This document shows positions 1 through 30,563 of a stretch of 64,000 bases of DNA, one piece after another; the first letter of the stretch is position 1; each line of letters starts with the position of its first letter. The stretch covers positions 540 through 64,539 of the forward strand of contig QZJE01000013.1 of the NCBI GenBank assembly GCA_003599235.1, read 5' to 3'. A program made the position numbers and the translations under genes. The DNA comes from Actinomycetota bacterium. Lineage in GTDB: Bacteria; Actinomycetota; Aquicultoria; SURF-47. The notes below the pieces were generated by a model. The model did no database searches. It was not told the DNA's origin and worked only from the letters and a program-made list of their open reading frames with translations.

Positions 1-3000
1 TAAGAGTCCCTATAGCATTCGTTGGATGCATATCTGAATGGTCGGAGATTCCCCAATAAAAGCGATTTATATCATTGTTGTCTTGCTGCATTACCCAGTT
101 AGTGCCATAACGATGGTTGTTGTCGATAATATTCGCATAGGCAACTTGGCTATTGCCTGGATTGACCCACATTGAAATAGAGAATGTCTGATAGCCAAAC
201 CAATTTCCTAGTTCTATGCAATCATCGCTTCCATCAAAATTAGCCGACTTATTAAACTTAGCGTCCGTGGAGTTAGTTAGGCCGCCGACAATCGTTCCGT
301 TGTGGACTCCAGTTTCGTCTTTAACGGTATTACCGGTTTGGCTGTCTAGGGTCCAAAAGCCCTGCATGCCTTTAATATCGTATTCCTCGAATACCCTGTT
401 ACCATCGCTAGCACTAACAGCATTGGCATTACCATAATACATATAGATTGTTTTGGCTGATTTAGCTAGCAGTGACGGAACTTTCAACCAAACAGTGGCT
501 TTAGTCCCATCAGTTTTACTTTCTATCCAGTATGGAATCTCAGATATTTTATCTGTATCAGTAAAACGCAAGTCAGAGAAATCTGACTTCATTGCCTCTT
601 TATACTCAAGGACTACTTTAACTTGATAGTTATTTAGAGTTTTAGGATTAGTAGTATTGTCAATTCTTAAAGGTGCTCTTTTAGTCCAGCTGTCACTATA
701 CCAATCTCTAATAGTAGTTGGTTTGGATACCGATACTGTTGGTTCAACAGAGCTAAGCTTGCGTATAGTAATATGATCTGCAATTTTTTCCATCTGGTTT
801 TGGTAACGACTGGTGATTTGCTCTGCAGTTAGCGGCTGATTATAAATTTTAACCTCATCTAAACAACCTCTAAAATACTGATCTGTAGTTGAATTAACAC
901 CTAAGCGTCCGATTCTTACAGGACTTCCTTGCCCATGTAAACTACCTGTCTCTGAGCTTACATCAATGGGGCCGGCAATGAGCTTGCCATCAAGATAGCC
1001 ATAAGCTGTATTTTGCTCTCTGTTAACGACTAAAACAAAGTGATGCCAAGCCCCATCGCTTATTCCTTGACCTGGTGCTTGTATGTATTTGCCATCACCC
1101 ACTCCGTCGCTGACTTCTGCCCAGAAGCCGCCGTTTCTGTGTTGTAGGATAAACCCCTGAGCCCAGCCAGAGCCACCGGTAGCCATTATCGTTCCATGTT
1201 CATTGTCTACATCGCTTGCTTGCCTTTTAGACCAGGCCTCTACGGTGAAGCTGCCATATGATAAGTCCACATTTTGAGGACTTTGTGTTTCCAGATAATC
1301 ATCATAGCCGTCGAAATAAGCCGCCCGGCCAAACTTAGCGTCTGGCACAGTAGAGGCTGAGCCAAAAGAGTTGGCATTATTAATGCCTATTTGGTCAGCT
1401 ACCTCACCAGGAGTTCCATTCCACGAAGCTTCATCGAACTTATAAAAAGCACTAATATTTTGCATATCAAAGCCATCAAAAGTAGCCACACCATCGCTAG
1501 CACTCTTTGCTAGAGGATTGCAGTAGTACATATTTACGGTCTTAAGTAATGCGGCTTTTATCTCTGGAACCCTAACCCAAATGGTAGCCCTAGATGATTC
1601 AGTATAATTTTCTATCCAGTAGGCAAGCTTGGTTAAATTATCAGAATCAGTAAAACACAGGTCAGAGAAATCAGATTTCATGCCTGGTTGATAGTCAACT
1701 TCTAGCTTAACGGGATAGTCGTTTAGGGTATTTGAGTTCTCTGTATTATCAAGGGTAATTTCAGAGCGCTTTAGCCAATCTTCATTAAACCAATCGAGGT
1801 TAAGTGATACCTCGGGCTCGTTTTGTGCACTTTTGCAAACATTAAAGACATCGCCCATCTTTTGTGTTTGATTCTTAGAGACACTTGAAACCTCATCTGC
1901 ACTAAGCGCCCGGTTGTATATTTTGAGTTCATCCATGGCCCCCTTAAAATACCTGGCTGCACCACTGTCTAGCTCTCTGCCAATCATTAAATCAGTATTA
2001 TCAACAATCTGAGGAGTTGTTGGGGCACTAGCTTTTTCTATTCCATTTATATATGTTTTTGCAGTCTGTCCGTTATTGGTGAGAGTTATATGATTCCAAT
2101 TATCCCAGCTAATATTTCCTGCCGGTGTATTAATAAACTCGTTAACATTATTAGCTGTGTGGAAACAATGATGAATATAGCCTGTAAAGTTTAGCCAGGC
2201 ATTGAAGTTCCTTCCAGGCTTGCCAACTAATCCTTTAAAGTCCTCATTAGGCTGACCATAGGGCTTCAACCAGAAGTCAACAGAGTAATTACTGATACGC
2301 AAACTCTGTGAATCAGAAGCAGTGATGCTGTCATTGAGACCATCAAAATAAGCAGCGCGGCCGAACTTTGCATCCGAGGTTGTTGCTGTCCCAGAGCTGC
2401 TGGTTCCACTATTTTGCCCTGTTTGGTCAGCCACATTTCCAGAAGCTGCTCCTTCTATAAACTCGGTTGCCTTGGATCCTTGCTCTAGTTGAGCTGCATC
2501 GAAATCATAATTAACACCAGGTGTATGCATATATACCTGGGCTCTTAAAGCTCTGGTAAGGGAAGCAAAATTCCTAATCGGTAATGTTACGCTATAGCGT
2601 TGCCACTCTTTGGAGTTGGTTGAAAAATAATTTCCAGCAGCATAATTGCCACCTGTCATATCGAAAAGAGCTAGTGTGCCGCTAATATTTTGGCCACCAG
2701 GAGATTTAATATAAATCGAAAAAGTGTAGTTGTCGTTAGCGCTTGCTGATACGTTTACATCTTGAAACCATGAATCTCCATTGTTTGGCGTTATAATATT
2801 TGTTTCTAAATAATTATTGCCGTGCTGTGAGCTTGCTTGGTTTGAATAAACTGCATGATTCAAATTTCCATAATGGCCCCAATTGGTAAGACCACTCTCA
2901 AAACTAGCATTAGTTAGCAGATTTGACTTAAAAGCATCCTCGTCCATATTGTAGAAAGCTGCTAGACCGCCAACATTGTAAGCATCAAAAACCTTACTGC

Positions 3001-6000
3001 CGTCGCTGGCACTGCCGGCATTAGGATTACCATAGTACATATAGATTGTCTTATTAGAGTTAGCTTTTATCTCAGGTACCTTAATCCATACTATGGCCTC
3101 TTCTGAGCGCTTATAGCTTTCTATCCAATAGTTAAGCTCAGCTACCCCGTCTGAGTCAGTAAAACGCAAGTCCGAGAAGTTATTCTGCATTTTGCTGACA
3201 TAAGGTACTTTTACTTTAATTTGATAGTCGGTTAAGGTGCTTGAACTATCTTTATTGTCTACTTTTAAGCTAGCCCTATTGGGCCAAGCCTGGCCATACC
3301 ATTGCTTAGTGGTAGTAGGATTGCCAGAAATGACAGGAATTAAACCCAAGTCTGAACCAGAAAAACCGTTTCCATTGCTTTGACTATTTGCTTCGGGATT
3401 TCCGTAGTACATATATATGGTTTTTATCGAAGTGGCTTTAATTAACGCAACTTTTACCCATACAGTAGCTTGCTTGGAGTCTGTTTTATCTTCTATCCAA
3501 TAAGGTAGCTCAGTTTGTTTGTTGGAGTCAGTGAAACGCAAGTCGGAAAAGTCGGCCTTCATGCCGGTGTCGTAATCGATGCTTATCTTAACCTGGTAAT
3601 CAGTTAAGTCCTCGGGGTTATAAAGATTATTAATCATCAACGGAGCTCTTCTAAGCCAAGCTGAATCGTACCAGGTGTCTGGATTAGTGGGAGTGTTATT
3701 ATCGCCTTGTAGAACTAGCTGGCCGTTGGCGGGGTCGTGATAGGCGTTAGCGTTCTTGCTGTTCCATAGCACTGGGTTAAATACTGAGAAGTCGTCTGCA
3801 AATAGATCATAGAGGCCGCTAGACTCCTTAGCAACTGACTTAATGATATTGCCGTTCTTATCGTAGTAATAGCGGTAGGTTGATAGTTCATCTACCCCCT
3901 GAGCTCCGTTGTCCCTAGCATTGCTGATTGAAGTTAGCTTGGAAGCAGCATCGTAGTCATAGTTAGTAATTAAACTGCTTAATGCATTGAGGGGACTGGT
4001 TATTTGGTCGATATTATTGCTCTTGCCGCCTTTGTCGTAGGAGAAATCAGACAGAGTTTTGCCACTATTATTAGAAATATAATCAAGCTTACTACTTGAA
4101 TTATATTCGTACCTCGTTTCAACCGTTGAATCGTTAATATTCTTTATTTTGTCATCTGGATCATATTGGAAATTAATAACTTTGTTCGAAGCATCTTTAA
4201 CGCTACCAATCATGTCATCATTGTTATATCTATATTCATATGATGTTTGAGATTGACCACTTGCTGGATTCTTAGTTACAGTTTCTACTAAATTTCCCAT
4301 CCAGTCGTATGAATTTTCTACGTCAACACTAGACTGTATATTTCCTTCGGCGTTCAGCTTAGTTAGGTTGCCAGCACTATCATAGTTTAGGCTTTGATTT
4401 TTTTCATTTGGTTGAATAATGTTCTCAGTTAAACCCGAATTATTGTAGTTAGTTTCAACTGTTTTTACGTTTTGATCGGTTTCAGTAGTTACCTGATCTG
4501 AAGCGTTATAGGCGGCAGCTGTGGAGGTGTTGTCCGGAGCGATTACTTTAGTCTCGTTTTGATTATTATCATATTCATAGTTTGTTTTATTTAGACTTCC
4601 ATCTTTAACAGTAGACAAGTTGTCGTTTTGATTATAGTTATAGCTAACTACATTATTTTTACCGTCAGCCGTTGTTCTTTCGTTTCCCTCCTTATCATAA
4701 GTAGTTTTAGTAACATTGCCAGTTTGATCCCCCGTAGCTACTTCATTGCCGGCTTTATCGTACAGACTCACTGAAGTACCTTCAGGGCTTCCCTGCTTAG
4801 TAACGTTACCAAAGCTATCATAGGCATATGCGGTCCAGTTACCGTCAGAAGCAGTTTCTTTGATTAAGCGGTTTAGTTTATCGTATTCATAGGTAGTCTC
4901 ACCATTGCGAAAGTTGTTAATTTCTTTTGTTTTGTTTCCATTTTCATCATACTGATAAGAATACCTAGCCCCTTTTTTATTATTTTTCTCTAATAGCTGA
5001 CCTGCCACATTGTATGAGTAGGTATTATAGCCCTTGGTGGTCGAGCTTCCATCGGTATTGTTGTTAAAGGCCTGAACAAAAATAACATTACCTGCAGCAT
5101 CATAAGTATTTTCAGTAACTGAATAGTCTCCGTTATCATTTGCCGGCTCTTTTTTTCTAATAACTCTTCCAAGTTCATCATATTCGGTGAGACTAAAGTC
5201 CATCCCTGCTTTTTGTTCTTTAGTTTTTCTGCCAAGTGAATCGTACTCAAAGGCAGTACTTACGCCTACCGGGTCTATTGTTTCTATGATATTGCCAAGA
5301 GCATCGTAACGATTATTAGCAACTCCTCCTTCAGGAGTTGTTTGAGTTACTTGATTGCCATTGTCGTCATAGGCATAGCTAGTAGTATTGTTATCAGGGT
5401 CAGTCTCTGATAAAAGATTGCCTTTGTCGTCGTAAGTGTAGTTGGTAGTCTTACCTGTCGGCGTGGTTTCAGCCAATACCAAGTTCTGTTGATTATATGA
5501 GCGTTCAGTAACCCTATGTCTGGCACTATAGCGAGCTTGGTCAGCGAGATATATTTGCTCATCTTCATTTGCATCATGGTCATGATTGATTTCTTTTAGC
5601 ACATTACCATTTGCATCGTATTCATAACTAGTAAAAGTCTTATCCTTATTAATCTGTTTAACAAGATTGTAATCGTTATCATATTCAAAATAGCATTCGC
5701 TGCCATGCTTAAATGGCTGGCTAAGCTCGGCGGAGGGAATATTTTCTTTAGCAAAGGCCGGGCCCCAGATATCGTTCCATAGTTGCTTTTTCTCCCACTG
5801 GATTTCTTTCCTGGCTACCACTTCAGCCTCTAAGTCATCAGCATCTTCGTCAAAATCATCGTAGGATTCATCTAGCCAATCGAGGTCTTCTTCATCTAAT
5901 CCCAGCTCTTCTTCATAGAAATCTTTATAGACCGTATAGTAGACAAGATATTCATGAGCAATTTCTTGCTCAACTGAGGCTCCCGGAAAGAAAGGTTTTT

Positions 6001-8722
6001 GGGCTTCTGTAATTACTGTTGAGCCTTCAGGCTCTCCAGCTACTGTTTTTAGCCCTTCTGGGTTGAAATAATATAGATATTCATAGCCTTTTGGGTCAGC
6101 TACTTTGGTGTAGCTTACTTCTCTTTCGTTTGTAGTCCAGGGATTATCGTTAACATTCTCAGTAACATATTCAATATTAATACTGTTACCATTAGGAAGC
6201 TGGGTGGTAACTAGGCTGGTAACGGTCGAGACTCCCCCACTTAAATAGCTAACTTTCGTTTGGCCACCCAAGGGGTTAGTGATAGTTTTGAGACCGTCTA
6301 CATCATAGCTATAGCTGTATGCAACCTCTGTGCTATTTCTTGGTAAGGGGTAAGTAACTTTACTTAAGTTATCTCCGCTAAAAGTATCGTTATATTCATA
6401 TGAATAAGTGCGGCCGGTAAAGTCCACTACGCTTACAACTTTGTGCTCTAGGGCACTCTTGTAATTGAATTTAATAAACCGGCTAGGATTATTATCATCA
6501 ACAATTTTTTCAATATGCCCGTTATCATTATATGTAAAGCTGATTGAGTTACCGTTCTTATCTAGCTCTTTTGCTGCTCTGCCGAAGGAGTCGAACTCAA
6601 CAATGCTTAAGTCTTTGCGTTTTAGAACAAAAGTGTTATTTTCGTTTAATACCAGGTCGTCAGTAGTTCCTTTGGGCCTTTTAAAAGAACCGTTTGGTTC
6701 CTTAGTGTACTCAAAAATAGCTCCTGTTTCATCGGTTAAAATAGCAGTTGAGCTGCCATTGTAATCGACCCTTAGACAATCCGGATAAGAGCTTACACCC
6801 CGTCCAAAGATTCTGGTAGTTTTATCATGGCTATTGTAAGTTCTTGCGACCCTCATTGAGGGGCCTTGGGTTTTGATAGATACGTCACTAGCTTCCAGCA
6901 TCAGGTTGCCGTTTTTAAGATCTACATTTACTCCGCTGTATTCCTTGTAGGTGCGGTAGCTTTTACGTCCATAGTCATTGGCCTCGTATGTAATAACTAA
7001 CCTAGGAGCTTTAGAGCCATCTTCTGATTCTGATGAATGAAAGACCATCTTGCGGTAGGTGTAAACATCATCAAAATACACTTGGCCAGAAGGCAGAGCC
7101 GCAAAATGAAGCCCATTTATCATGCTGTTGCCAAGAGTTATTTGACTAGGTATGAAGCTTAGTTTCTGCCAGCTGCCACCAGGAGGCAATCCCCCAATAT
7201 TTACCTTGTTAGGAAAATAAATATCCTCTTCATGGCTGCCATAGGTGGCAATTGCTCCCCAATAACCGGTGTGCCACGCATCGCCATTTTGTAAACTTAT
7301 GCCCAAATGCTGAGGCGCTGATTGAACAAAACACCAAGCCTCTATTGGGCTGTCTGTTGGAATATAGTAATCATTGCTGGTATTTTTCCAGGAGTTGTAA
7401 ACACGTCCATTAACACTTGTTGATTTAGTGCCTGAATGCAGTGGGGATCCTACCCAAGACCAGCTAGGATTAGTTGGCAATGCATCGTCAATAAGATAAA
7501 CCTTACTGGTATTGTCTAACATAAAGCCGTAATTCTGTGTGGGGCTTGCCTGCCAACCTTTTACAATGTCAGTTACATTAAAAGCTTGGTTGTCAACAGT
7601 ATTATCTGAGGCATCTATTTTTGAATTAGCATCATATTTATTGCTTTTGCTATTCCAGGTTGCAGTTGAATCCCAATTCTCAGTCATTTTGTAAACCCTG
7701 CTTTTAGCTTGGCCTTTATAGTAGGGGGAGCCAGCATTGATATTTGTCTCTGAATTATTAGTGCCGTAATCAGGCATAATATTTTGCAACTTAGCTTCGG
7801 TAATATTGGCGTTACCGGGAATAGAGTTAAGAGGATATCTAATAAGTGTTTTATATTGCTCACTCTCTGACTTAGCTCCCACTCTTAAACGAGTGTCGCT
7901 TGCAAATGAAGAATCGGGTTGAGCAGATGAAACATAGGTATCGGCATCTGGGCGTTCTTGGGTAATAAAAGTTGGGTCAATTTTTACCGGATAAACTCGT
8001 TTAGGGTCTGCTAGCCATTTTCTATCGGCAACTACCCTTAATATGTAGGTAGAGCCGGCTCTTCTTCTCAATGCCATAGTCACGTTAGGAGAATAAGCTT
8101 CTGCTTGAGCTGAGTCTGTCATAAAAGGTTTTTCGATAACTATTGAAGTTTTCTTGTTCTTATCTGTCAAGTTAATAGAGCCGTCTTTTTGAGGAGATGG
8201 GATTAAGTTTCTTAAGTTAAGCTCGAAGGTAAAAACGTTGCTTCGCGGTTTCTTTTTTAGGATAATTTGCTCTTTTAGGCGCCCTTGCTCAGTTAAGTAC
8301 TCTAAATCAGTATCGGTTGTAATATTACTGTAAACTACCTTGTTTTTCGCTTTTTTGATTGGCTTAAAAGCGCGTTTTTTTTCACCTAAAAGCTTGTAAG
8401 TTAACCCAAGATTTTTATTGTCTTTTTTTGCTAGAGAAAACAAATTACTTTGATTATCGCTAAAGTCTACCGTCAGGTTGTTTTTATTTACTTCCTGGGT
8501 AATTTCAGTTGTATAAGTACCGTCTGGATTAAGATAGGTTTTGGAATTAGCTGTTCTTTTATCAGTAAGCTCTACCTTGGTTGGCTTTGGCTTAGCGTAA
8601 GTAATGTTCATTAAAGCGCCTTTAAGGCTTCCCAGGAATGAAAAGTTAACAGGAATAGTGCTAATTATTTGAAACAACAGGCAAAAACAGATGGTTAATG
8701 CTGTTAAGCGTCTAACCCTCAT
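1..8722 (-). CDS. Giant secreted surface protein, partial (start at 8722, C-terminus beyond window position 1); YD/RHS-type repeats, four DUF2341-like repeats, LamG/concanavalin-like regions
   Basis: Minus-strand frame checked at anchor points 8720, 4757, 3542, 3170, 1661 and 572, all in the same phase; the span was not scanned codon by codon, but the track lists no other long ORF across 8.7 kb. ATG at 8722..8720 overlaps the TGA of the upstream gene (ATGA). N-terminus MRVRRLTALTICFCLLFQIIS is signal-peptide-like. YD motifs (e.g. LYDKAGNE near 4757). Motif DFSDLRFTDS...YWIE...IYMYYGNP recurs four times (DNA near 575, 1665, 3170, 3545). Absent from the ORF track because no stop lies inside the window. 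Confidence 0.8.
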   Translation of the reverse strand, partial: MRVRRLTALTICFCLLFQIISTIPVNFSFLGSLKGALMNITYAKPKPTKVELTDKRTANSKTYLNPDGTYTTEITQEVNKNNLTVDFSDNQSNLFSLAKKDNKNLGLTYKLLGEKKRAFKPIKKAKNKVVYSNITTDTDLEYLTEQGRLKEQIILKKKPRSNVFTFELNLRNLIPSPQKDGSINLTDKNKKTSIVIEKPFMTDSAQAEAYSPNVTMALRRRAGSTYILRVVADRKWLADPKRVYPVKIDPTFITQERPDADTYVSSAQPDSSFASDTRLRVGAKSESEQYKTLIRYPLNSIPGNANITEAKLQNIMPDYGTNNSETNINAGSPYYKGQAKSRVYKMTENWDSTATWNSKSNKYDANSKIDASDNTVDNQAFNVTDIVKGWQASPTQNYGFMLDNTSKVYLIDDALPTNPSWSWVGSPLHSGTKSTSVNGRVYNSWKNTSNDYYIPTDSPIEAWCFVQSAPQHLGISLQNGDAWHTGYWGAIATYGSHEEDIYFPNKVNIGGLPPGGSWQKLSFIPSQITLGNSMINGLHFAALPSGQVYFDDVYTYRKMVFHSSESEDGSKAPRLVITYEANDYGRKSYRTYKEYSGVNVDLKNGNLMLEASDVSIKTQGPSMRVARTYNSHDKTTRIFGRGVSSYPDCLRVDYNGSSTAILTDETGAIFEYTKEPNGSFKRPKGTTDDLVLNENNTFVLKRKDLSIVEFDSFGRAAKELDKNGNSISFTYNDNGHIEKIVDDNNPSRFIKFNYKSALEHKVVSVVDFTGRTYSYEYNDTFSGDNLSKVTYPLPRNSTEVAYSYSYDVDGLKTITNPLGGQTKVSYLSGGVSTVTSLVTTQLPNGNSINIEYVTENVNDNPWTTNEREVSYTKVADPKGYEYLYYFNPEGLKTVAGEPEGSTVITEAQKPFFPGASVEQEIAHEYLVYYTVYKDFYEEELGLDEEDLDWLDESYDDFDEDADDLEAEVVARKEIQWEKKQLWNDIWGPAFAKENIPSAELSQPFKHGSECYFEYDNDYNLVKQINKDKTFTSYEYDANGNVLKEINHDHDANEDEQIYLADQARYSARHRVTERSYNQQNLVLAETTPTGKTTNYTYDDKGNLLSETDPDNNTTSYAYDDNGNQVTQTTPEGGVANNRYDALGNIIETIDPVGVSTAFEYDSLGRKTKEQKAGMDFSLTEYDELGRVIRKKEPANDNGDYSVTENTYDAAGNVIFVQAFNNNTDGSSTTKGYNTYSYNVAGQLLEKNNKKGARYSYQYDENGNKTKEINNFRNGETTYEYDKLNRLIKETASDGNWTAYAYDSFGNVTKQGSPEGTSVSLYDKAGNEVATGDQTGNVTKTTYDKEGNERTTADGKNNVVSYNYNQNDNLSTVKDGSLNKTNYEYDNNQNETKVIAPDNTSTAAAYNASDQVTTETDQNVKTVETNYNNSGLTENIIQPNEKNQSLNYDSAGNLTKLNAEGNIQSSVDVENSYDWMGNLVETVTKNPASGQSQTSYEYRYNNDDMIGSVKDASNKVINFQYDPDDKIKNINDSTVETRYEYNSSSKLDYISNNSGKTLSDFSYDKGGKSNNIDQITSPLNALSSLITNYDYDAASKLTSISNARDNGAQGVDELSTYRYYYDKNGNIIKSVAKESSGLYDLFADDFSVFNPVLWNSKNANAYHDPANGQLVLQGDNNTPTNPDTWYDSAWLRRAPLMINNLYNPEDLTDYQVKISIDYDTGMKADFSDLRFTDSNKQTELPYWIEDKTDSKQATVWVKVALIKATSIKTIYMYYGNPEANSQSNGNGFSGSDLGLIPVISGNPTTTKQWYGQAWPNRASLKVDNKDSSSTLTDYQIKVKVPYVSKMQNNFSDLRFTDSDGVAELNYWIESYKRSEEAIVWIKVPEIKANSNKTIYMYYGNPNAGSASDGSKVFDAYNVGGLAAFYNMDEDAFKSNLLTNASFESGLTNWGHYGNLNHAVYSNQASSQHGNNYLETNIITPNNGDSWFQDVNVSASANDNYTFSIYIKSPGGQNISGTLALFDMTGGNYAAGNYFSTNSKEWQRYSVTLPIRNFASLTRALRAQVYMHTPGVNYDFDAAQLEQGSKATEFIEGAASGNVADQTGQNSGTSSSGTATTSDAKFGRAAYFDGLNDSITASDSQSLRISNYSVDFWLKPYGQPNEDFKGLVGKPGRNFNAWLNFTGYIHHCFHTANNVNEFINTPAGNISWDNWNHITLTNNGQTAKTYINGIEKASAPTTPQIVDNTDLMIGRELDSGAARYFKGAMDELKIYNRALSADEVSSVSKNQTQKMGDVFNVCKSAQNEPEVSLNLDWFNEDWLKRSEITLDNTENSNTLNDYPVKLEVDYQPGMKSDFSDLCFTDSDNLTKLAYWIENYTESSRATIWVRVPEIKAALLKTVNMYYCNPLAKSASDGVATFDGFDMQNISAFYKFDEASWNGTPGEVADQIGINNANSFGSASTVPDAKFGRAAYFDGYDDYLETQSPQNVDLSYGSFTVEAWSKRQASDVDNEHGTIMATGGSGWAQGFILQHRNGGFWAEVSDGVGDGKYIQAPGQGISDGAWHHFVLVVNREQNTAYGYLDGKLIAGPIDVSSETGSLHGQGSPVRIGRLGVNSTTDQYFRGCLDEVKIYNQPLTAEQITSRYQNQMEKIADHITIRKLSSVEPTVSVSKPTTIRDWYSDSWTKRAPLRIDNTTNPKTLNNYQVKVVLEYKEAMKSDFSDLRFTDTDKISEIPYWIESKTDGTKATVWLKVPSLLAKSAKTIYMYYGNANAVSASDGNRVFEEYDIKGMQGFWTLDSQTGNTVKDETGVHNGTIVGGLTNSTDAKFNKSANFDGSDDCIELGNWFGYQTFSISMWVNPGNSQVAYANIIDNNHRYGTNWVMQQDNNDINRFYWGISDHSDMHPTNAIGTL

Positions 8723-11436
8723 TTTTTCACCTTTACTTTGATAGCTTTTGAGTTGCTAGCCTTAAATCTTTGTTCTCCGGCAAAGACTGCCTTGATTGTA
8801 GTTGTTTTTCTAAAACGGATTGCTTTGGCAAAAACTCCCTTGGAATTGGTTTTAGCTTTAGCAATTACCCTCCAGACCCACTCTTTAGCCCTAATTGTTC
8901 TGCCATTAACCTTCTTTTTTATAATACGTAAGGCTTTGGCTTTAAAGTTTATCCCTTTATTAGCCAGTGCTCTGCCATTGCTATTTTTTAGTTGGCCCTT
9001 AATAACGGTTTTTTGACCTGCCTTTATTACATATTTCTTGGCTGCTATTGATAACCTGGTGCCAAGAACTTTTATTGCCGGAGAAGGGTTGATTGGATTA
9101 ATGTTTGGGGCTGGAGCACTGGGAGTAGGGCTTAGAACTGGTAGGGCTATTACTACCAAGGCTTGTGTAGCCTCATCAGATGAAGCTCCTTCATCATCTA
9201 TCGCTATAAACTTAATTACATGTGGACCTATCGATAGATTATTAGCATTAAAGCTGATTGCTCTAGAAAGCTCTCCATCGACTGAAGAAGTCCAAATATA
9301 TTCATCAATATCGCCATCTTCATCATTAGCGCTGCCTATAAAACTAACACCTTGGCCCTGAATTGCAGGATTAGGAGTTACAGACTCAATTTTAGCAGTT
9401 GGTTTTTTATTGGTTTGAGCAATAACGGTTACTTCTGTTTCGGCTTCGCTTGACCATAGCCCGTCATCATCTTTAACTTTGAAATATATTGTATGCTGAC
9501 CTGGCGATAAATAATCAGTATCAAATGACTTTTCATCTGAGAGATCATCGTCTATGGAAGAACGCCAACTATACTCGGCGATGCTTCCATCTGAATCATC
9601 ACCATGGCCACTAAAATAAACTGCCTCTGCCTCATTAACAGTTTCCGGGCTTGCTAAATCAATAACAGCAGTGGGTGGCTGATTCGGGGGTTGTATCTCC
9701 AAATTGGCAGATACTTCATCAGACCAAGCACCTTTGTTGTCCTTGACCTTTAAATAAATAGTATGTAGGCCGATTAATAAATCTCCTACACTAAACATCC
9801 TTAAGCTAGGAAGTGTTTCGCCCATAGAAGAGCGCCAGCTATATTCAACGATAGATCCATCATCAATTCCTAATGCTTCAAAAAAAATTGGTGTGTCAAC
9901 GTGCGCAGTTGTTGGATTAAGATAGTTTATCAAAGCAACAGGCTTTTGATTAATATCTATTATAGCGGAAACTTCATCAGAGAAAGCACCGTCGTTATCC
10001 CTAACTTTAAAGTAAATTGTATGGAGTCCAGGAGGCAGGTTGTTAATAGCAAAATCTTTTTGATTTGATAAAGGTCCATTAATGGAAGAACGCCAGTAAT
10101 ATTCTGTTATACTCCCATCTGTATCTAGTCCGCTGCCACCAAATGAAATATTATCCCCCTGGTTAGCTGGGTTAGGACTAATGAGATTTATAGTAGCCGT
10201 TGGAGCTTGATTAATTACCTCTAGAGTGCTAGACGCTTCATCTGACCACTCACCCTCACTATCTCTTACCTTAAAATATATAGTGTGAGCACCGACCGAT
10301 AAAGTACTGGTATTAAAACTGGCTTGATTAGATAGTTGCCCATCTATCGAAGAACGCCAACTGTACTCTCTAATTATTCCGTCTATATCATTTCCCATAC
10401 CATCAAAAGCTACACCTTGCTTTTGAAATGCAGGATTTGGAGTTATCAAATTTATTATAGCGGTTGGTTTTTGGTTGTTAATAATAAAGAGTTTTGTATC
10501 ATCAGCTGTTACTACTTGAGTTGAAACGTTAATTAAATCTGCATTCTCAATTGTTTGAGATGCCTTGTAATATTTTGTTTTATATACTTGGGCATCATCA
10601 TAAAACCTTAGTTTGTAATTACCATTTCGAAGGCCATTAAGCTGATAATTACCCTGAGAATCGGTTGAAGTACTGAATAAATAAGTCGAATTGGCATCAA
10701 ATAAACCGACTTCAATATATTCAAGAGGCTGGTCAATGTTATTTGTAACTTTACCTATTATTTGAGAAGGCACCTCTAATTCAGCATTAATATTCTCTAA
10801 TTCTTGAGTAGAGTTTAAGTGAACAGAGCTAGCGCTAGTAAAATCTGATTTATCATTATAATATTCATAAGCGTAGCTATCTGCTAAAAATAAGACCTTG
10901 TAATCCCCGGAAGGTAAGGCGCTTATTTCATAGCTTCCATTGGACTCACTATATCCAGAGCTAATATAATGGCCATTTAAGTCAAAAGCAGATATCTCAA
11001 CATTTTCAACAGGCAAGCCGGCGTTGTCTGTGACAACTCCTTTTATCAAAGACGCTGGCTCTAAAATACTATTATTAATACTAAGGCTTGAACCGTTACT
11101 AAGCGAAATTGAATTAGCTTCTTCTAGACAATTGCTGTTTTGATAAAATTTTATTGCATAATAGCCAGTGTAATCGATGAATTTGATTTTATAATTACCG
11201 TCGGCTAAATCTGTAAAAGTATAGTTGCCGAAAAAGTCAGTGAATTGAGTATCGAGTGGCTCTCTATTGCTATCAAATATAGTCACTTCGATTTCTTCTA
11301 TTGCTTGGCCAGATGCATTGTTGACTTTCCCGGTAATTGAACCTGACCCTAAACCATAAGAAGGATTACTAAATAATATAAGAGATAAAGCTATTAATAT
11401 TATAACCAAGCCCAACTTCTTTAGATGCATGTACAA
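8719..11436 (-). CDS. Secreted repeat protein: signal peptide, three Cna-B / carboxypeptidase-regulatory-like domains, six ~88-aa PKD-like repeats, Lys/Arg-rich C-terminal module
   Basis: 905-aa ORF. Repeats of the form KPTA.INLI.PNPA.QG..V.F.G.G.D.DG.I.EY.WRSS..G.LS....F....L..G.HTIYFKV.D..G.WSDE occur six times. Track start is TTG at 11436; an in-frame ATG at 11430 is the more likely start. Confidence 0.8.
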   Translation of the reverse strand: MYMHLKKLGLVIILIALSLILFSNPSYGLGSGSITGKVNNASGQAIEEIEVTIFDSNREPLDTQFTDFFGNYTFTDLADGNYKIKFIDYTGYYAIKFYQNSNCLEEANSISLSNGSSLSINNSILEPASLIKGVVTDNAGLPVENVEISAFDLNGHYISSGYSESNGSYEISALPSGDYKVLFLADSYAYEYYNDKSDFTSASSVHLNSTQELENINAELEVPSQIIGKVTNNIDQPLEYIEVGLFDANSTYLFSTSTDSQGNYQLNGLRNGNYKLRFYDDAQVYKTKYYKASQTIENADLINVSTQVVTADDTKLFIINNQKPTAIINLITPNPAFQKQGVAFDGMGNDIDGIIREYSWRSSIDGQLSNQASFNTSTLSVGAHTIYFKVRDSEGEWSDEASSTLEVINQAPTATINLISPNPANQGDNISFGGSGLDTDGSITEYYWRSSINGPLSNQKDFAINNLPPGLHTIYFKVRDNDGAFSDEVSAIIDINQKPVALINYLNPTTAHVDTPIFFEALGIDDGSIVEYSWRSSMGETLPSLRMFSVGDLLIGLHTIYLKVKDNKGAWSDEVSANLEIQPPNQPPTAVIDLASPETVNEAEAVYFSGHGDDSDGSIAEYSWRSSIDDDLSDEKSFDTDYLSPGQHTIYFKVKDDDGLWSSEAETEVTVIAQTNKKPTAKIESVTPNPAIQGQGVSFIGSANDEDGDIDEYIWTSSVDGELSRAISFNANNLSIGPHVIKFIAIDDEGASSDEATQALVVIALPVLSPTPSAPAPNINPINPSPAIKVLGTRLSIAAKKYVIKAGQKTVIKGQLKNSNGRALANKGINFKAKALRIIKKKVNGRTIRAKEWVWRVIAKAKTNSKGVFAKAIRFRKTTTIKAVFAGEQRFKASNSKAIKVKVKK

Positions 11437-11586
11437 AATAACATCCTCTCAATTAGATTTACTTGGTAAGATGGCTAGTACTTCTAAGTGGTTTGACGAC
11501 TACTGATAGATAACTCAATATTATATCCTACTATCGCCATAATGCCAAGCGTATGGTTATGATACAACCGAATAATGAAGTTGACT

Positions 11587-11610
11587 ACCCTAAAAATTAG
11601 GGTATTTTTT
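11587..11610 (+). promoter_or_regulatory. Perfect palindrome ACCCTAAAAATTAGGGT followed by ATTTTTT; terminator-like on plus strand or operator
   Basis: 7-bp stem, 3-nt loop, T-run on the plus strand, yet both flanking genes are minus-strand. Embedded in the direct repeat TTGACTA..ATTAGGGT (11581-11603 and 11610-11626). Confidence 0.3.
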
Positions 11611-11667
11611 GACTAGAAATTAGGGTCTTAAGATTGCCGTGCCGGTGGGTCGCAATGACGATAATAG

Positions 11668-14097
11668 CTACTTTACTGCTCTTAGGTGTTTTTTCTCAAC
11701 ACTCTTTTTAGCAGTAGAAGAGCGGCCTTTTAGGTAGATTTTATTGGCGATTTTTACAAAGACTTTGGCGATAATTGGGTCAAATTGAGTACCGGCATTG
11801 TTTTTAATCTCTTTAAGGGCAACTGATAGCGGAAGTGCTTTGCGGTATGGCCTGTCGGAGGTCATGGCGTCGAAGGTGTCAGCCACAGCTAAAATGCGAG
11901 CTCCCAGAGGAATTACCTCACCGGCAATGCCGTTGGGATAGCCTTTGCCGTCGTATCTTTCATGGTGATGCAGCACGATTGGCATAATATCTTCTAAATC
12001 CGAATATTGCTCGATAAGCTTCTTGCCGATTTTTGGATGTTGCTCAATTAAGGCTCTTTCTTCGTCTGTTAAAAACCCCGGTTTGTTGAGGATTTTGTCG
12101 CTGATACCAATCTTGCCGATGTCATGCAGTTCACCGGCTACTTCTATCATCCGAACTTCTTCTTCTGATAAGCCCATTTCTTTAGCGATTTCTACCGAAT
12201 ACTTTGTTACTGCATCGGAGTGACCTTTGGTGTATGGGTCTCTGGCTTCAACAGCGCTGATATAGATGTTTATTACCTGCAAGTTACGCCGCTCTTCGTC
12301 CTCTCTTAGCTTAGTGTTCTCTATAATTTGGGCTACATTAGCAGCAACAGTTCTTACCAAATCTGTATCTTCATTGGTAAAACGCCTTTTGTTTTTCACT
12401 CTATTGATGCTTAAAACTCCCAAGAACTTGCCCCTGGCCTCTAGGGGTACGCAAATAGCGGAGTTAATATGGTCTCTTTTAAGAAACTTTCTTAAAGCCT
12501 CGTCTTCATTGTCAATTATCACCAGCTCTTTATCTTGAGCCACCCTGCCGGCAATGCCCTCACCCAGCTTTACTTTGTTGTAATAATACTTGTGAGGAAC
12601 TCCCCGGCAAGCGCTTATCTCCAGAGTTTCTGTTTTGTCATCATAGAGCATAATGGAGCCGCCCTCAGACTGAGTAGCTATAAAAGCGCTGTCGATAGTG
12701 CCATCCAGCACTTCACTTAAGTCTTCGTTAGAGATTATCTTCTCGGCTTGGTTATACAAAGCCGCCATTTTCTTAACTTCATTGGAACGCTCTAAGGCTA
12801 CAACCGCACGGGAAGAGAAGTCGTCGAGTAAGCGCAAATCCTGGCTGGTATACATATCGCCCGACTTCTTACTGCCCAAGGCCAGCATAGCCACCATGTC
12901 ATCTTTGGTTTTTATTGGGACAAGTACTTCTACGCCATTATCTCTTAGGTTGTTTTTAATATCGTTTTCTTCTTCTAGTTCGTCTGTTACCAGCATTTCA
13001 CTATGGTCGAAAAGATAGGTCGAAAACCCTTGCCAAAGCCTTTTGCCTGTCGGAAAACCAATAGCTTGCACCTGATTTACCTGAGAGCTAGTAGTTAGCA
13101 CAAAAGCTGCATTGTTTATTTTCATCTGGTCTGTTAGTGTGTCTAGCCAGTTCTTGATTAAGTTCTCTTCCCTAGCGTACGTTAAGCTGATATTGTCCAG
13201 CTCCCTTCTTAACTCTGCTGGTTTATACCGCCCCTTGGCAAATAGCCTGTCAGTGTGATCTTCGATAAACCGCCTGAGGGGGTTGAATGTGAACACGAGG
13301 ATAAAAAGAGCTACTATATTGAGTGCTAGCGGATTGATGATGGGTTTTAGCTTGTCCAGAAATAGATAAGTGACGGTAATATATATGCCTGCTATTACTG
13401 ATAGAGTTAGCGTATAAGCTACAGAGCGTAGAACCAATAGACGTATATCCATAAGCCGGTGTTTTACTATTGCATAAGATGCAAACCCAACAAAAAACAA
13501 AGATCCCGGGCTATCCAACATATAAAGTTTATAAATACCAAGAATCGGCAGAATAATGTCTACAAAAGTTACCCAAACAGCAAATAAGATAATTCCTAAA
13601 AAAACGAACTCGGCCTGTCTCTTTCTTGGACCAATATGTCTTTTGTTAATAAAAAATAAAGCAAAAAACCAGACTGTATTGATTAAAATATAAACAGCAA
13701 ATAAAGGAAAAAGTAAACCATATTCAACTTCTGAACCGGTTATACTGAAAGTTTTGACTTTTTCAACAACCATTGGAGTTATCCCAATAGCGCCCACCAC
13801 TAAACCGAAAGCATAAACTAGCAATGCAAGCTTTCGGTTATCATAATAGAAAATCAGCATCCAACTAAGATAACAAGAAATACAGATCGCGCCAGTTGCA
13901 TACATAAGTCTAATTAACAGGAGATTGTGCACATATAAAGCGGTGAGATTAACCCCTATCCAGGAAATTGTGGCAATTGTTAAAATAAAAAAATTGCGAT
14001 TAATCGCAGACTTCTTGTTTCTTATAAAAACAAGCAGACCTAGAAGAAAGTTAATTATAATACTAAAAGCAATTATTGACTTAAGAATACTCAGCAT
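11668..14097 (-). CDS. Membrane sensor phosphodiesterase: N-terminal 7TM region, GAF-like middle, C-terminal HD-GYP domain
   Basis: 809 aa. Multi-TM N-terminus with RLMDIRLL motif. C-terminus carries ELHDIGKIGISD and HHHERYDGKGYPNG (HD and GYP signatures). Confidence 0.8.
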   Translation of the reverse strand: MLSILKSIIAFSIIINFLLGLLVFIRNKKSAINRNFFILTIATISWIGVNLTALYVHNLLLIRLMYATGAICISCYLSWMLIFYYDNRKLALLVYAFGLVVGAIGITPMVVEKVKTFSITGSEVEYGLLFPLFAVYILINTVWFFALFFINKRHIGPRKRQAEFVFLGIILFAVWVTFVDIILPILGIYKLYMLDSPGSLFFVGFASYAIVKHRLMDIRLLVLRSVAYTLTLSVIAGIYITVTYLFLDKLKPIINPLALNIVALFILVFTFNPLRRFIEDHTDRLFAKGRYKPAELRRELDNISLTYAREENLIKNWLDTLTDQMKINNAAFVLTTSSQVNQVQAIGFPTGKRLWQGFSTYLFDHSEMLVTDELEEENDIKNNLRDNGVEVLVPIKTKDDMVAMLALGSKKSGDMYTSQDLRLLDDFSSRAVVALERSNEVKKMAALYNQAEKIISNEDLSEVLDGTIDSAFIATQSEGGSIMLYDDKTETLEISACRGVPHKYYYNKVKLGEGIAGRVAQDKELVIIDNEDEALRKFLKRDHINSAICVPLEARGKFLGVLSINRVKNKRRFTNEDTDLVRTVAANVAQIIENTKLREDEERRNLQVINIYISAVEARDPYTKGHSDAVTKYSVEIAKEMGLSEEEVRMIEVAGELHDIGKIGISDKILNKPGFLTDEERALIEQHPKIGKKLIEQYSDLEDIMPIVLHHHERYDGKGYPNGIAGEVIPLGARILAVADTFDAMTSDRPYRKALPLSVALKEIKNNAGTQFDPIIAKVFVKIANKIYLKGRSSTAKKSVEKKHLRAVK

Positions 14098-14178
14098 TTT
14101 TTTTGCCTACTTTTGTTGCTTAGAATATGTATCGGCAATTAAGCAAGAAACTTAAGTAGTTGGGACATTAAACACTGG

Positions 14179-15636
14179 TTACTTTAGTTTCCTTGCATAT
14201 TCATTAAAATTAAGAGCTAAATTAATTGCTGATGTTGAAGTCACATTTTTGTTCCATAAACATTTTATTATAAAAATGTTTTTAGCAACATTAAATCCTA
14301 GCGTCTTGATAGTAAAAATAAAGCGTCCTTTAGAAAAAACGGTTTGTTTTTCGTTTCTACCTCTAACAAAAACTTTATTTCTCCAAAGGTTAGTAAATCT
14401 GGAATGCATTGAATTGTATTTATATAGATGTTTCAAGAGCCTGTTTCTCTCAGATTGCAATATCGTTGGAGAAATCTGCTTTGTCTGAAAGCAAACTTTT
14501 TCTCCATCATACTCATGCCATAGATTAGAAGTTATTCTTCCTTGACTAGCTAAACGCTCATATAACAAAGTACCAGGCGCAGGAGTGATTAAGTTAATCA
14601 TTGAAAAAGCTAAATTTGTATCCTTTATGAAGTTACTTGTTGCTTCAATAGTTGCAATGTCGTCATTGTCATTCCCTAACATAAATGATCCAATTACAGC
14701 TATCCCATTCTTATGTATTAGGTTAACAATCTCCTTATACTGTTCTACCTTATTAACTTTGCTTTTGTTTAATTCAAAAATACTCTCTTGTTTAACTGAT
14801 TCAAATCCTATAAAAACAGCCCTACAACCAGATTCATACATTAATTTAAGAAGCTGGCTGTCATTTAAACGATTTATTGCTGCTTGGCACCACCAACTAT
14901 TAATCTTAAGAGGAATGAGGTTTTTGAAAAGGCTTTTAGCAAACTCGGGTTTAGCCAACAAATTATCGTCTGCGAAAAAAATCATTTTTTTTGGGTCAAT
15001 AGCCCTTAAATAACGAATTTCCTCAATCACTGTATGCACTGACTTGTTTCTATATTTATGTCCATTAAAAGACCAAACAGAGCAAAAATCACAACTATTT
15101 GGGCAACCTCTTCCTACTTGGACAGTAAAATAACAATATTCATGAGTTTTGAGCAGATCCCACCTAGGAATTGGTGAATTAGTTAATGATGGGGGGGTTT
15201 TCATTCGATAAATTTTTTGTAGTTTGTTTTGCTTAAAATCATTAATTAACCCAGGCCAAAGTTCATCAGCCTCACCAATAACAATGCTGTCAGCATGCTT
15301 TATTGCTTCATCGGGTAACATTGAGACATGTATACCGCCTAGAACAACCTTAACCCCTCGTTTCATAAATTCATCTGCTATCTCGTATGCTCTCGGGGCT
15401 AGGGAAGTAAGAAAAGAAATTGCTACTAAATCAACTTGCTCCTCGAAATCAATGCGCTCAACAACTTCATCATTAATAATAACTTCAACCTCTGAAGGAG
15501 TTAGTGCTGCTAAAGTTGGGAGAGATAGGATAGTACCTCCTGCTTTTCTCCCAGTTATCTCTCTGACAGTTTTAAAATCCCAAAAACTCTCGCCCCATTC
15601 AGGCTTTCTGGCTGGAGCTATCAGTTTAATTTTCAT
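14179..15636 (-). CDS. B12-binding-domain radical SAM protein
   Basis: 485 aa. N-terminal B12-binding-like region; radical SAM cysteine triad CPNSCDFCSV. 4-bp overlap with the upstream gene. Confidence 0.75.
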   Translation of the reverse strand: MKIKLIAPARKPEWGESFWDFKTVREITGRKAGGTILSLPTLAALTPSEVEVIINDEVVERIDFEEQVDLVAISFLTSLAPRAYEIADEFMKRGVKVVLGGIHVSMLPDEAIKHADSIVIGEADELWPGLINDFKQNKLQKIYRMKTPPSLTNSPIPRWDLLKTHEYCYFTVQVGRGCPNSCDFCSVWSFNGHKYRNKSVHTVIEEIRYLRAIDPKKMIFFADDNLLAKPEFAKSLFKNLIPLKINSWWCQAAINRLNDSQLLKLMYESGCRAVFIGFESVKQESIFELNKSKVNKVEQYKEIVNLIHKNGIAVIGSFMLGNDNDDIATIEATSNFIKDTNLAFSMINLITPAPGTLLYERLASQGRITSNLWHEYDGEKVCFQTKQISPTILQSERNRLLKHLYKYNSMHSRFTNLWRNKVFVRGRNEKQTVFSKGRFIFTIKTLGFNVAKNIFIIKCLWNKNVTSTSAINLALNFNEYARKLK

Positions 15637-16820
15637 TTTATTATTCCTGACAATGCCTCAATTAGCACATCAAGATGCTCTTGTTCATGAAGAGCTGTTG
15701 GCACAATTCTCATTCTTGCTGTATTTGGTGGAACAGCTGGGCTTCTAAAGCTCTCGATAAGTATTCCTTTATTAAATAGCTTTTCAGATGCTGATACAGC
15801 CTTCATATCATCGTATAGCATCAGCGGCAACACCGGGGATACACCGTTTCCTAAGATATCAAAATTCAATAATTTTATTTTGTCATAAATATAATTGTAA
15901 TTACTAAAAAGCTTTTGCCTTAATGAATTATCGTTAATGCTAAGCTCTATTGCCTTTATTAATCCACCAGCCACTGGTGCAGAAATTGGCGAAGAATAAA
16001 TGTAAGGCCTGAGCGTAATTCTTAAATAATCAATAAGTTCTTTTTTGCCAGCTAAAAATCCACCCATTCCACCAAGCGCTTTGCTAAAAGAACCCATGAT
16101 GATATCTACTTGCCCCTCAAGCCCAAAGTGCTGTACGGTGCCCCCTCCATTATCGCCAAGGATTCCAATAGAATGTGCATCATCTATTAAAACCATCGCT
16201 CCATATTTCTTAGCTAATTCAACTATTCCTGGCAAAGGAGCTAATTCTGCCTCGAGACTAAACACACCTTCTGTAACAATTAATTTAGGCTCTTCTTTAT
16301 CCACATTGGATAGTTTTTCTTCTAAATCTGTTAAATCATTATGCTTAAAAACCGCTAGCTTGGTATAACTTTGTCTGTATCCATCAGCAATTGAAGCATG
16401 GTTACTTTCGTCACTTATAAGGATTCCAGAACCTCTTTTATAGTCTGAAGTAAAAAACATAGGATCCAGCAAAGCGCTGATAATACCACTATTTGCTATG
16501 TATCCGGTAGGAATAGTTATAGCTGCCTCAGTTTGAACCAATTGGGATACTTTTAGTTCAAGCTCTTCGAGCAAAGCTAAGTTGCCTGATAGCAACCTTG
16601 ATGTTCCTGGCCCAATTCCGTGCTCTCTAGCAGCCTCGATAGAGGATTGAATAACTTCTGGATGAGTTGATAAGCCTAAATAATTGTTTGAGCAGAAATT
16701 TATGTAATCTTTATTGTCGATTGTTATTATTGGCTGAGTTGAACCTTTGGCGACTGTTTTTATTTTTGGATAAAGACCTGATCCTTTAATATGATTCAGG
16801 GTATCGTATATGTGCTTCAA
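15633..16820 (-). CDS. PLP-dependent alpha-oxoamine synthase family enzyme (BioF / Kbl / serine palmitoyltransferase / CqsA-like)
   Basis: 395 aa. Motifs LIDDAHSIGILGDNGGG and GSFSKALGGMGGF (PLP lysine). Confidence 0.8.
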   Translation of the reverse strand: MKHIYDTLNHIKGSGLYPKIKTVAKGSTQPIITIDNKDYINFCSNNYLGLSTHPEVIQSSIEAAREHGIGPGTSRLLSGNLALLEELELKVSQLVQTEAAITIPTGYIANSGIISALLDPMFFTSDYKRGSGILISDESNHASIADGYRQSYTKLAVFKHNDLTDLEEKLSNVDKEEPKLIVTEGVFSLEAELAPLPGIVELAKKYGAMVLIDDAHSIGILGDNGGGTVQHFGLEGQVDIIMGSFSKALGGMGGFLAGKKELIDYLRITLRPYIYSSPISAPVAGGLIKAIELSINDNSLRQKLFSNYNYIYDKIKLLNFDILGNGVSPVLPLMLYDDMKAVSASEKLFNKGILIESFRSPAVPPNTARMRIVPTALHEQEHLDVLIEALSGIIK

Positions 16821-16837
16821 TCCTTATTCCCTTGTAA

Positions 16838-29516: not shown

Positions 29517-29526
29517 TTAAACCCCC

Positions 29527-29556
29527 GTTGTTCGAACTTTGAACTTCGTTGTTCGT
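29527..29556. promoter_or_regulatory. Direct repeat CGTTGTTCG (n12) CGTTGTTCG with internal GTTCGAAC palindrome, 11-40 nt upstream of clpC
   Basis: Two identical 9-mers 21 bp apart in the 49-bp mcsB-clpC spacer. Confidence 0.35.
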
Positions 29557-29565
29557 TATCTAATT

Positions 29566-30555: not shown

Positions 30556-30563
30556 GGGTAATT

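Follow-up and report, generated by a model that had tools for sequence, protein, structure and literature searches.

We describe a 64,000-nucleotide stretch of DNA (hereafter the window; assembly GCA_003599235.1, contig QZJE01000013.1, positions 540 to 64,539) from a metagenome-assembled genome (MAG) of an Actinomycetota bacterium, the left edge of which is occupied by a giant gene on the minus strand (positions 1 to 8722). The product of this gene is probably a WapA-like polymorphic toxin of the Rhs/YD type, exported by Sec from a monoderm bacterium and furnished with a long array of lectin-like domains as a targeting arm. Rhs/YD cocoon toxins are weapons that bacteria turn on the cells next to them. 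The reading frame, the domain order, and the junction at which the YD shell enters the array were observed directly in the gene of the window, and both junctions of the array, together with the pattern of a conserved core followed by differing C-terminal domains, were observed in its relatives.

The original prediction, which is right in its essentials, held that the minus strand remains open from the ATG at 8722 to position 1 over more than 2,900 codons and that the gene exceeds the window, and both statements are borne out. Translation from that ATG to window position 1 yields 2,907 sense codons and zero stops (residues 1 to 2907), and the product is identical to the GenBank protein RJQ32079.1, a record of 3,087 residues flagged as partial. 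This record is the first coding sequence of a 212,622-bp contig that also bears other genes of the window (RJQ32081.1 and RJQ32088.1), and the gene runs off the contig end 540 nucleotides to the left of window position 1. The neighbouring minus-strand frame over positions 1 to 8722 is stop-rich, and because stop codons make up 9.9% of the remaining two minus-strand frames, an open run of this length is exceedingly unlikely by chance (~1e-131). The gene was missing from the list of open reading frames (ORFs) because ORFs that run off the source sequence go unlisted; it had been deposited already, with only generic annotation. Its ATG (8722 to 8720) overlaps the TGA (8721 to 8719) of an upstream PKD-repeat gene, as had been predicted, in an ATGA at 8719 to 8722 on the minus strand (junction sequence AAAAAATGAGGG; in fuller context, AAGGTGAAAAAATGAGGG), and a Shine-Dalgarno-like AAGGTG lies at 8733 to 8728 on the same strand, 5 nucleotides 5' of the ATG.

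Domain positions were taken from Pfam, NCBIfam, and custom hidden Markov models, and all of the domain coordinates that follow lie on the minus strand. The protein opens with a leader (residues 1 to ~30; 8633 to 8722) made of MRVRR and a hydrophobic core. Its hydrophobic stretch at residues 5 to 25 (~20 residues) is the sole transmembrane-like segment of the giant protein by hydropathy, and the leader fits a putative Sec signal peptide or anchor, as the claim of a signal peptide had anticipated. A DNRLRE domain follows (residues 252 to 408; 7499 to 7969; NF033679 at residues 260 to 406, 1.6e-18, 67.3 bits against a cutoff of 34), an N-terminal module that is typical of WapA-type Gram-positive Rhs proteins. 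The first and larger part of the YD/Rhs shell spans residues ~675 to 1660 (3743 to 6700), matches RHS_repeat (PF05593; 5e-52, 173.8 bits against a cutoff of 22) and TIGR01643 (3.2e-44), and holds 11 strict YD motifs at residues 729 to 1625. The shell is entered from a DUF6531 (residues 595 to 674; 6701 to 6940; PF20148 at residues 599 to 669, 2.3e-7, 31.5 bits against a cutoff of 24.1), a domain that precedes YD shells. The Pfam and NCBIfam output for the giant protein contains no PAAR or type VI secretion system (T6SS) domains. The Rhs core TIGR03696 and the autoproteolysis motif are absent from the available 3,087 residues and would lie past the contig end. Within the first part of the shell we also observed a highly acidic loop, EEELGLDEEDLDWLDESYDDFDEDADDLEAE, at residues ~925 to 990 (window 5750 to 5950), and after it the motif W..W.P.FA.ENI..PE[IL]SQP, which is kept in two of the relatives described below (P0002 and P0004).

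Beyond the shell lies an array of eight modules and ~1,400 residues, in the order DUF2341, DUF2341, carbohydrate-binding module (CBM) of the CBM_4_9 type, laminin G-like domain (LamG), DUF2341, LamG, DUF2341, LamG. The array starts, by the junction alignment, with DUF2341 copy 1 (residues 1681 to 1797; 3332 to 3682), which is followed by DUF2341 copy 2 (residues 1805 to 1922; 2957 to 3310), the CBM_4_9-type module (residues 1930 to 2095; 2438 to 2935; PF02018 at residues 1925 to 2095, 5.6e-13), and LamG domain 1 (residues 2110 to 2293; 1844 to 2395; best Laminin_G_3 stretch at residues 2128 to 2279). DUF2341 copy 3 (residues 2308 to 2425; 1448 to 1801), LamG domain 2 (residues 2454 to 2650; 773 to 1363; Laminin_G_2 at residues 2508 to 2627), and DUF2341 copy 4 (residues 2671 to 2788; 359 to 712) come next, and LamG domain 3 (residues 2813 to 2999; 1 to 286), located by a custom model on the full public record, is cut by the window edge at residue 2907. 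The DUF2341 copies were placed by Pfam and a custom model, and custom models likewise delimited the first two LamG domains. Pfam recovers DUF2341 (PF10102) in four stretches (3e-81, 268.4 bits against a cutoff of 23.4), the number of modules that had been claimed. The LamG units match Laminin_G_3 (PF13385; 2.5e-43) and Laminin_G_2 (PF02210), belong to the LamG/ConA-like superfamily, and have a lectin-type fold. All four families that the original prediction had named for a profile search (RHS_repeat, DUF2341, Laminin_G_3, and PKD) were matched, and its reading of YD/RHS-type repeats stands. Its description of the DUF2341 copies as near-identical in DNA does not: the stretch at 3150 to 3185 agrees with its in-register partner, at an offset of 372 and not 375, at 27 of 36 nucleotides, the best 75-nucleotide cores are 72 to 79% identical, and two whole modules are 56% identical. 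At the protein level the DUF2341 copies share 46 to 59% identity with one another and the LamG copies 33 to 35%. Because the copies have diverged in both DNA and protein, their sequences mark them as old duplications; a recent internal duplication or a recombination-hot repeat is ruled out by the 46 to 59% protein and ~56 to 79% DNA identity.

An AlphaFold2 model of one such unit (DUF2341 copy 3 with LamG domain 2, residues 2300 to 2662, from an 11-sequence alignment) is all-beta, and the folds closest to the model are those of toxin receptor-binding domains and CBM40 lectins. Fold comparison gave figures of 22.0 for BoNT/X, 20.7 for domain 4 of the arabinanase AbnA, 20.3 for tetanus toxin Hc with a ganglioside analogue, 16 to 17.5 for CBM40 sialic-acid modules, ~12.6 to 16 for pentraxins, and 13.8 for the lectin module of a type IV pilus minor pilin (PilC). 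Identity to the clostridial neurotoxin Hc domains and the CBM40 sialic-acid modules is 9 to 21%, a similarity of fold class and not family membership. The sequence profile of the DUF2341-LamG unit matches solved structures by its LamG half only (4qvs at 1.8e-20, 5ho0, and the Hc of tetanus toxin and PMP1), and the LamG profile matches by sequence the ligand-binding domain of the AbnA arabinanase, tetanus and PMP1 Hc, and CBM40 sialidase domains. In the literature DUF2341, which occurs in pilus-associated proteins and in giant surface proteins, is regarded as probably an adhesin domain (PMC4858521; PMC11809585; PMC12505986).

The first 1,650 to 1,790 residues of the giant protein are shared with three singleton relatives recovered by a protein search, each of them a complete gene on its own contig: P0002 (4,070 residues, 48% identity to the window protein), P0003 (3,337 residues), and P0004 (2,339 residues, 38% identity). 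We use P0001 for the window protein as its public 3,087-residue record, P0002, P0003, P0004, P0122, and so forth for relatives, and L001, L002, and L083 for related loci. P0002, P0003, and P0004 carry leaders similar to that of the window protein, and the layout of the class in complete relatives is a Sec-type leader, DNRLRE, DUF6531, the YD shell, the Rhs core, an unrelated C-terminal domain, and small downstream ORFs. Residues 1 to 1651 of P0002 align to residues 1 to 1719 of P0004, and residues 3476 to 3956 align to residues 1726 to 2174; P0002 has 1,825 extra DUF2341/LamG residues where P0004, which is without an array, has some six unaligned residues. At this insertion point P0004 shows an ordinary YD hairpin turn (...GNVTNTV-ETDGS-TIYDYD). 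YD motifs flank the arrays on both sides in P0002, P0003, and P0122, and in the latter two there are three separate insertion sites, holding a CBM, one DUF2341-LamG unit, and two further units. Because YD repeats flank the array on both sides in complete relatives, the alignments indicate that the array is an insertion spliced into a hairpin turn of the YD shell and not a tail or a C-terminal appendage.

The window protein itself shows the entry junction only (residues ~1660 to 1681), and the return junction from the array to YD repeats is present in P0002, P0003, P0122, P0267, and P0269. Residues 2209 to 3087 of P0001 align to residues 2549 to 3395 of P0002 at 44% identity, and the contig end, because of this alignment, falls inside the bridge from array to shell; the last 80 residues of P0001 match the bridge domain that stands before the YD return in P0267 and P0269. 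Depending on which relative serves as the yardstick, we estimate that 430 to 715 residues are missing from the window copy, for a full length of ~3,500 to 3,800 residues. The locus that carries P0004 (L083, 1 to 15020) shares with window positions 1 to 18592 the order of an AMP-binding enzyme (64% identity), a GAF-HD protein (41%), and the Rhs gene. Related genomes thus hold a gene with the array and a gene without it in a similar setting. L083 also has a HisKA_7TM kinase between its GAF-HD and Rhs genes, the N-terminal region of which is 32% identical to that of the GAF-HD protein.

With a 261-residue query spanning the YD-to-DUF2341 junction, we recovered 11,284 DUF2341 proteins among 1.84 billion representatives, and the only matches that span the junction are P0001, P0002, and P0122. 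Among the best 146 new matches, YD repeats and a core occur in P0121, P0122, and P0222 only. Across 82 fetched loci, LamG or DUF2341 is found in just 4 of 93 Rhs-type ORFs; a single LamG between DUF6531 and the YD repeats is common in the Rhs proteins of Streptomyces, Actinomadura, and Micromonospora.

The relatives also supply the part of the class architecture that the window copy has beyond its edge. In P0002, P0003, and P0004 alike, an Rhs-associated core (TIGR03696; 2.1e-18 in P0002) is followed by an unrelated short C-terminal domain that ends the protein. The core is conserved in six aligned relatives (...YYDTETGLYKMGVRYYQxDVGRWLTRD...QNRYVYxxNNPxxxxDPxG[HYF]), with the closing motif varying among DPTGH, DPTGY, DSTGY, DPSGY, DPDGH, and DPSGF, and the sequence after DPxG is unrelated across all six, in C-terminal domains of 119 to 243 residues. 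At the level of sequence, a conserved core joined to unrelated C-terminal domains is the signature of a polymorphic toxin. The C-terminal domain of P0002 (L001, 21848 to 22800) begins with a hydrophobic stretch of ~33 residues and continues into a PBECR2-like RNase region (1.9e-5 against PBECR2, just under the Pfam cutoff), and a 196-residue ORF that overlaps the P0002 stop codon in L001 is a candidate immunity gene. Small ORFs without a Pfam family follow the Rhs genes of related loci. The complete relatives therefore lend strong support to a predicted toxin and immunity gene beyond position 1 for the window copy. The same MAG encodes, on a 67.7-kb contig, a 432-residue protein (RJQ32680.1, P0270) of YD repeats, a core ending in DPQGF, and Peptidase_C92 (28 bits against a cutoff of 27), which begins ~35 to 40 residues past the point at which the shell of P0003 resumes; no second Rhs core lies elsewhere in the window. 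Orphan Rhs C-terminal modules have been described (PMC12704120), and from its sequence RJQ32680.1 may be such a module or else belong to the 3' end that the giant gene lacks. An orphan that shares core sequence with the giant gene could also be the cause of the assembly break.

These data suggest the following mechanism. Judging from the relatives, the missing 430 to 715 residues would resume the YD shell and lead into an Rhs-associated core with the autoproteolysis motif (RYYxxDVGRW...NNPxxxxDPxG[HYF]), after which a variable toxin of 120 to 250 residues would sit inside the cocoon and a small immunity gene would follow. The lectin-like array would project outside the cocoon, because an array that exceeds 150 kDa when folded is too large to be the encapsulated cargo, and would form a multivalent arm for binding glycans or receptors. 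The array would dock the toxin container on the surface of a target cell, and the C-terminal toxin would be released and delivered after docking. The PKD/CarboxypepD_reg surface protein encoded upstream would be co-expressed by way of the ATGA overlap.

Several points weigh against this reading. The leader was judged by hydropathy alone, and no cell-wall-binding repeat family of the Bacillus subtilis WapA type is among the Pfam and NCBIfam matches. We infer the exterior display of the array from its size and the precedent of mosquito SGS1, discussed below, and its binding to a target is likewise an inference. The module model is only moderately confident (pLDDT, the predicted local distance difference test, of 68; pTM, the predicted template modelling score, of 0.63), the DUF2341 half of the profile matches no solved structure by sequence, and we know of no binding ligand for DUF2341. 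The C-terminus, moreover, is unseen: the core, toxin, and immunity gene of the window copy are absent from the window and from all of the searched collections. An exact 50-nucleotide search of genome contigs for the contig of the giant gene returned zero matches, and the searched DNA collections likewise had no record with an exact match to P0001, P0270, or the PKD and GAF-HD proteins. A scan of metagenome contigs with the last 310 residues of P0001 gave only matches of no more than 36% identity over the bulk of the query, and a scan of genome contigs with the shell alignment yielded nothing closer than generic Rhs genes of no more than 30% identity.

The nearest known systems are instructive in both their likeness and their difference. 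We took the WapA proteins of B. subtilis and Streptococcus suis as the WapA-type reference (Koskiniemi et al. 2013; PMC12704120). Rhs proteins of this type have signal peptides and are presumed to be exported by the Sec route (PMC12704120), and the window protein resembles them in having a putative signal peptide in place of PAAR- or VgrG-linked domains, a DNRLRE domain, a DUF6531, and a long YD shell; its complete relatives add the Rhs core, the variable, predicted C-terminal toxin, and the small downstream ORFs. Unlike WapA-type toxins, the window protein holds ~1,400 residues (1,825 in P0002) of DUF2341, CBM, and LamG inside its shell and is without the wall-binding repeats of the B. subtilis type, and no SrtB- or SecF-like neighbours are found among the annotated ORFs of the window. 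In the cryo-electron microscopy structure of mosquito SGS1, a CBM and a lectin carbohydrate-recognition domain are inserted in the Rhs/YD repeats, decorate the exterior of the shell, and have been read as receptor domains (PMC9935623). The likeness is one of layout, in that non-YD domains occur in both as segments within the YD-repeat sequence of an Rhs/YD cocoon protein. SGS1, in contrast, has single small domains and beta-propellers and a payload of transmembrane helices, whereas the window protein is bacterial, with a WapA-like N-terminus and a tandem array of eight modules that includes DUF2341. Actinobacterial LamG-Rhs proteins (annotated in Streptomyces, Actinomadura, and Micromonospora as "LamG-like jellyroll fold domain-containing protein") share DUF6531, LamG, YD shell, core, and toxin with the class, and a few of them (P0034, P0060, P0069, and L082) also have LamG between runs of YD repeats. 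They differ from the window protein in usually bearing one to three LamG domains right after DUF6531, in having no DUF2341, and in an identity of only 22 to 28%. Archaea and Patescibacteria have giant DUF2341-LamG surface proteins (e.g., P0009, found in a MAG of Aenigmarchaeota, and type IV pilus-associated DUF2341 proteins; PMC4858521; PMC11809585) that carry the same DUF2341-LamG tandem unit in many copies, a unit inferred in the literature to be adhesive, but these proteins are without YD repeats, Rhs core, or toxin.

The main rival concerns the role of the array. It could be a stalk or self-anchor, a string of beta-sandwiches that holds the cocoon in the thick envelope of the producer, or pushes it through, by way of the producer's own cell-wall glycans. 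How WapA proteins of more than 300 kDa cross the wall is an unresolved question (PMC12704120), the Laminin_G_3 profile matches include the S-layer-domain protein 4qvs (1.8e-20), and wall-binding repeats of the B. subtilis type, which could have served as an alternative anchor, were not detected. An anchor, however, is expected at a terminus and not in a late hairpin of the shell, and the closest folds are those of toxin receptor-binding domains and CBM40 lectins. The site and number of the arrays also vary (three sites in P0003, none in P0004), which looks more like diversification of specificity than a fixed structural need. We consider this rival unlikely, though it deserves to be taken seriously. 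Far less probable is that the protein is a toxin-free giant adhesin or scaffold whose YD shell has a structural role, like that of teneurin or SGS1, with nothing deliverable at the end of the window copy. The unseen C-terminus of the window copy leaves room for such a protein, and most DUF2341 proteins are large surface proteins of an adhesin-like kind (PMC4858521; PMC11809585), 143 of the 146 best new matches being without YD repeats and core. All complete relatives that correspond to it over the N-terminal 1,650 residues, however, end in an Rhs core and a hypervariable C-terminal domain, and DNRLRE-DUF6531-YD is the architecture of toxin-bearing proteins named WapA or DNRLRE. The gene lies at a contig end of a MAG, in a repetitive region, and could in principle be an assembly chimera of an Rhs gene and a surface-protein gene with DUF2341 that has no relation to it. 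This is exceedingly improbable given that the same in-frame YD-to-DUF2341 junction occurs in independent assemblies (P0002, query 6 to 247 in one stretch; P0122, 1 to 247), that the return junction is present in P0002, P0003, P0122, P0267, and P0269, and that there is no frame break over 8.7 kb.

The gene upstream of the putative toxin (8719 to 11436, minus strand; ORF list and Pfam) encodes a secreted surface protein of 905 residues from a TTG at 11436 or 903 residues from an ATG at 11430. It was predicted to be a PKD-repeat gene, and Pfam recovers PKD; the protein comprises a leader, three CarboxypepD_reg/SdrD_B-like beta-sandwiches, five visible PKD-like repeats, and a basic, Big_3_5-like C-terminal domain (residues ~787 to 905; window 8722 to 9096). 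A two-gene operon of the PKD gene and the giant gene is suggested by sequence because the best promoter-like site, TTGGCA-17-TATAAT (11520 to 11548, minus strand; 11 of 12 positions of the consensus, with a site count not above the shuffled expectation), lies in the 231-nucleotide gap upstream of the PKD gene. A functional partnership of the two proteins is unproven, because the coupling is not conserved in L001, L002, and L083: in L001 the upstream gene lies 54 nucleotides off and has only the 110-residue C-terminal Big_3_5-like domain in common with the PKD protein, and in L002 and L083 the genes upstream of Rhs differ from the PKD gene. The related loci thus lend no support to a conserved operon that joins these two genes. 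The Big_3_5-like domain of ~110 residues recurs at 37 to 41% identity in the PKD protein and in otherwise unrelated Rhs-adjacent proteins at two loci of another MAG (L001, 9642 to 9905; L002, 20691 to 21017 and 1591 to 1938), and it may serve this lineage as a surface anchor of its own. Between the GAF-HD and PKD genes, at 11586 to 11604, is a perfect palindromic hairpin of 8 bp, TACCCTAAAAATTAGGGTA; a T-run follows it on the plus strand only, yet both flanking genes are on the minus strand.

Directly upstream of the candidate operon, at 11668 to 14097, lies the GAF and HD-GYP protein, and a 7TM-GAF-GGDEF protein is found at 41773 to 43731; both are of the cyclic-di-GMP signalling type. A second large surface-protein gene (32622 to 36674; 1,350 residues) carries the Ig-like repeats Big_13, Big_3_3, Ig_Rha78A_N, and Big_7. 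The rest of the window is housekeeping in nature: radical SAM/B12, aminotransferase, GltX, IspDF, RadA, McsA/McsB/ClpC, LysS, SecA, and RNase R. The window contains no machinery of the T6SS or the type VII secretion system, PADLOC returned zero defence-system matches, and scans for Rfam families and tRNAs found none in the window. At 27024 to 31082, an McsA-like protein (UVR motif), McsB (ATP:guanido phosphotransferase), and ClpC are encoded in a row. The McsA/McsB/ClpC operon is typical of Bacillota, and the MAG, which has a G+C content of ~40%, is labelled Actinobacteria/Actinomycetota; the taxonomic label may be questionable given this row.

Receptor domains in a YD shell, as in SGS1, and the logic of Rhs/WapA toxins are known already, and our finding is an extension of known biology and not a new kind of system. 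What is new is the scale of the insertion (eight modules and ~1,400 to 1,800 residues), the use of DUF2341-LamG units typical of the giant adhesins of archaea and Patescibacteria, and the variation of site and number among close relatives, from no array in P0004, to one large array in the window protein and P0002, to three sites in P0003 and P0122. We tentatively raise the possibility that the array is a swappable receptor-binding cassette, gained, lost, multiplied, and moved between hairpins of the shell, that retargets a Sec-exported toxin container to other cell-surface glycans, akin to the modules of phage tail fibres. If so, targeting would be a second polymorphic axis of Rhs toxins beside the C-terminal toxin, and the widespread but uncharacterised DUF2341 would acquire a role that can be tested, that of a toxin's binding module. 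Target recognition and reach are poorly understood for WapA-type toxins, and a lineage with variable spliced arrays is a natural experiment on this question, as its related genes, though similarly placed, are either free of arrays or carry them at other sites.

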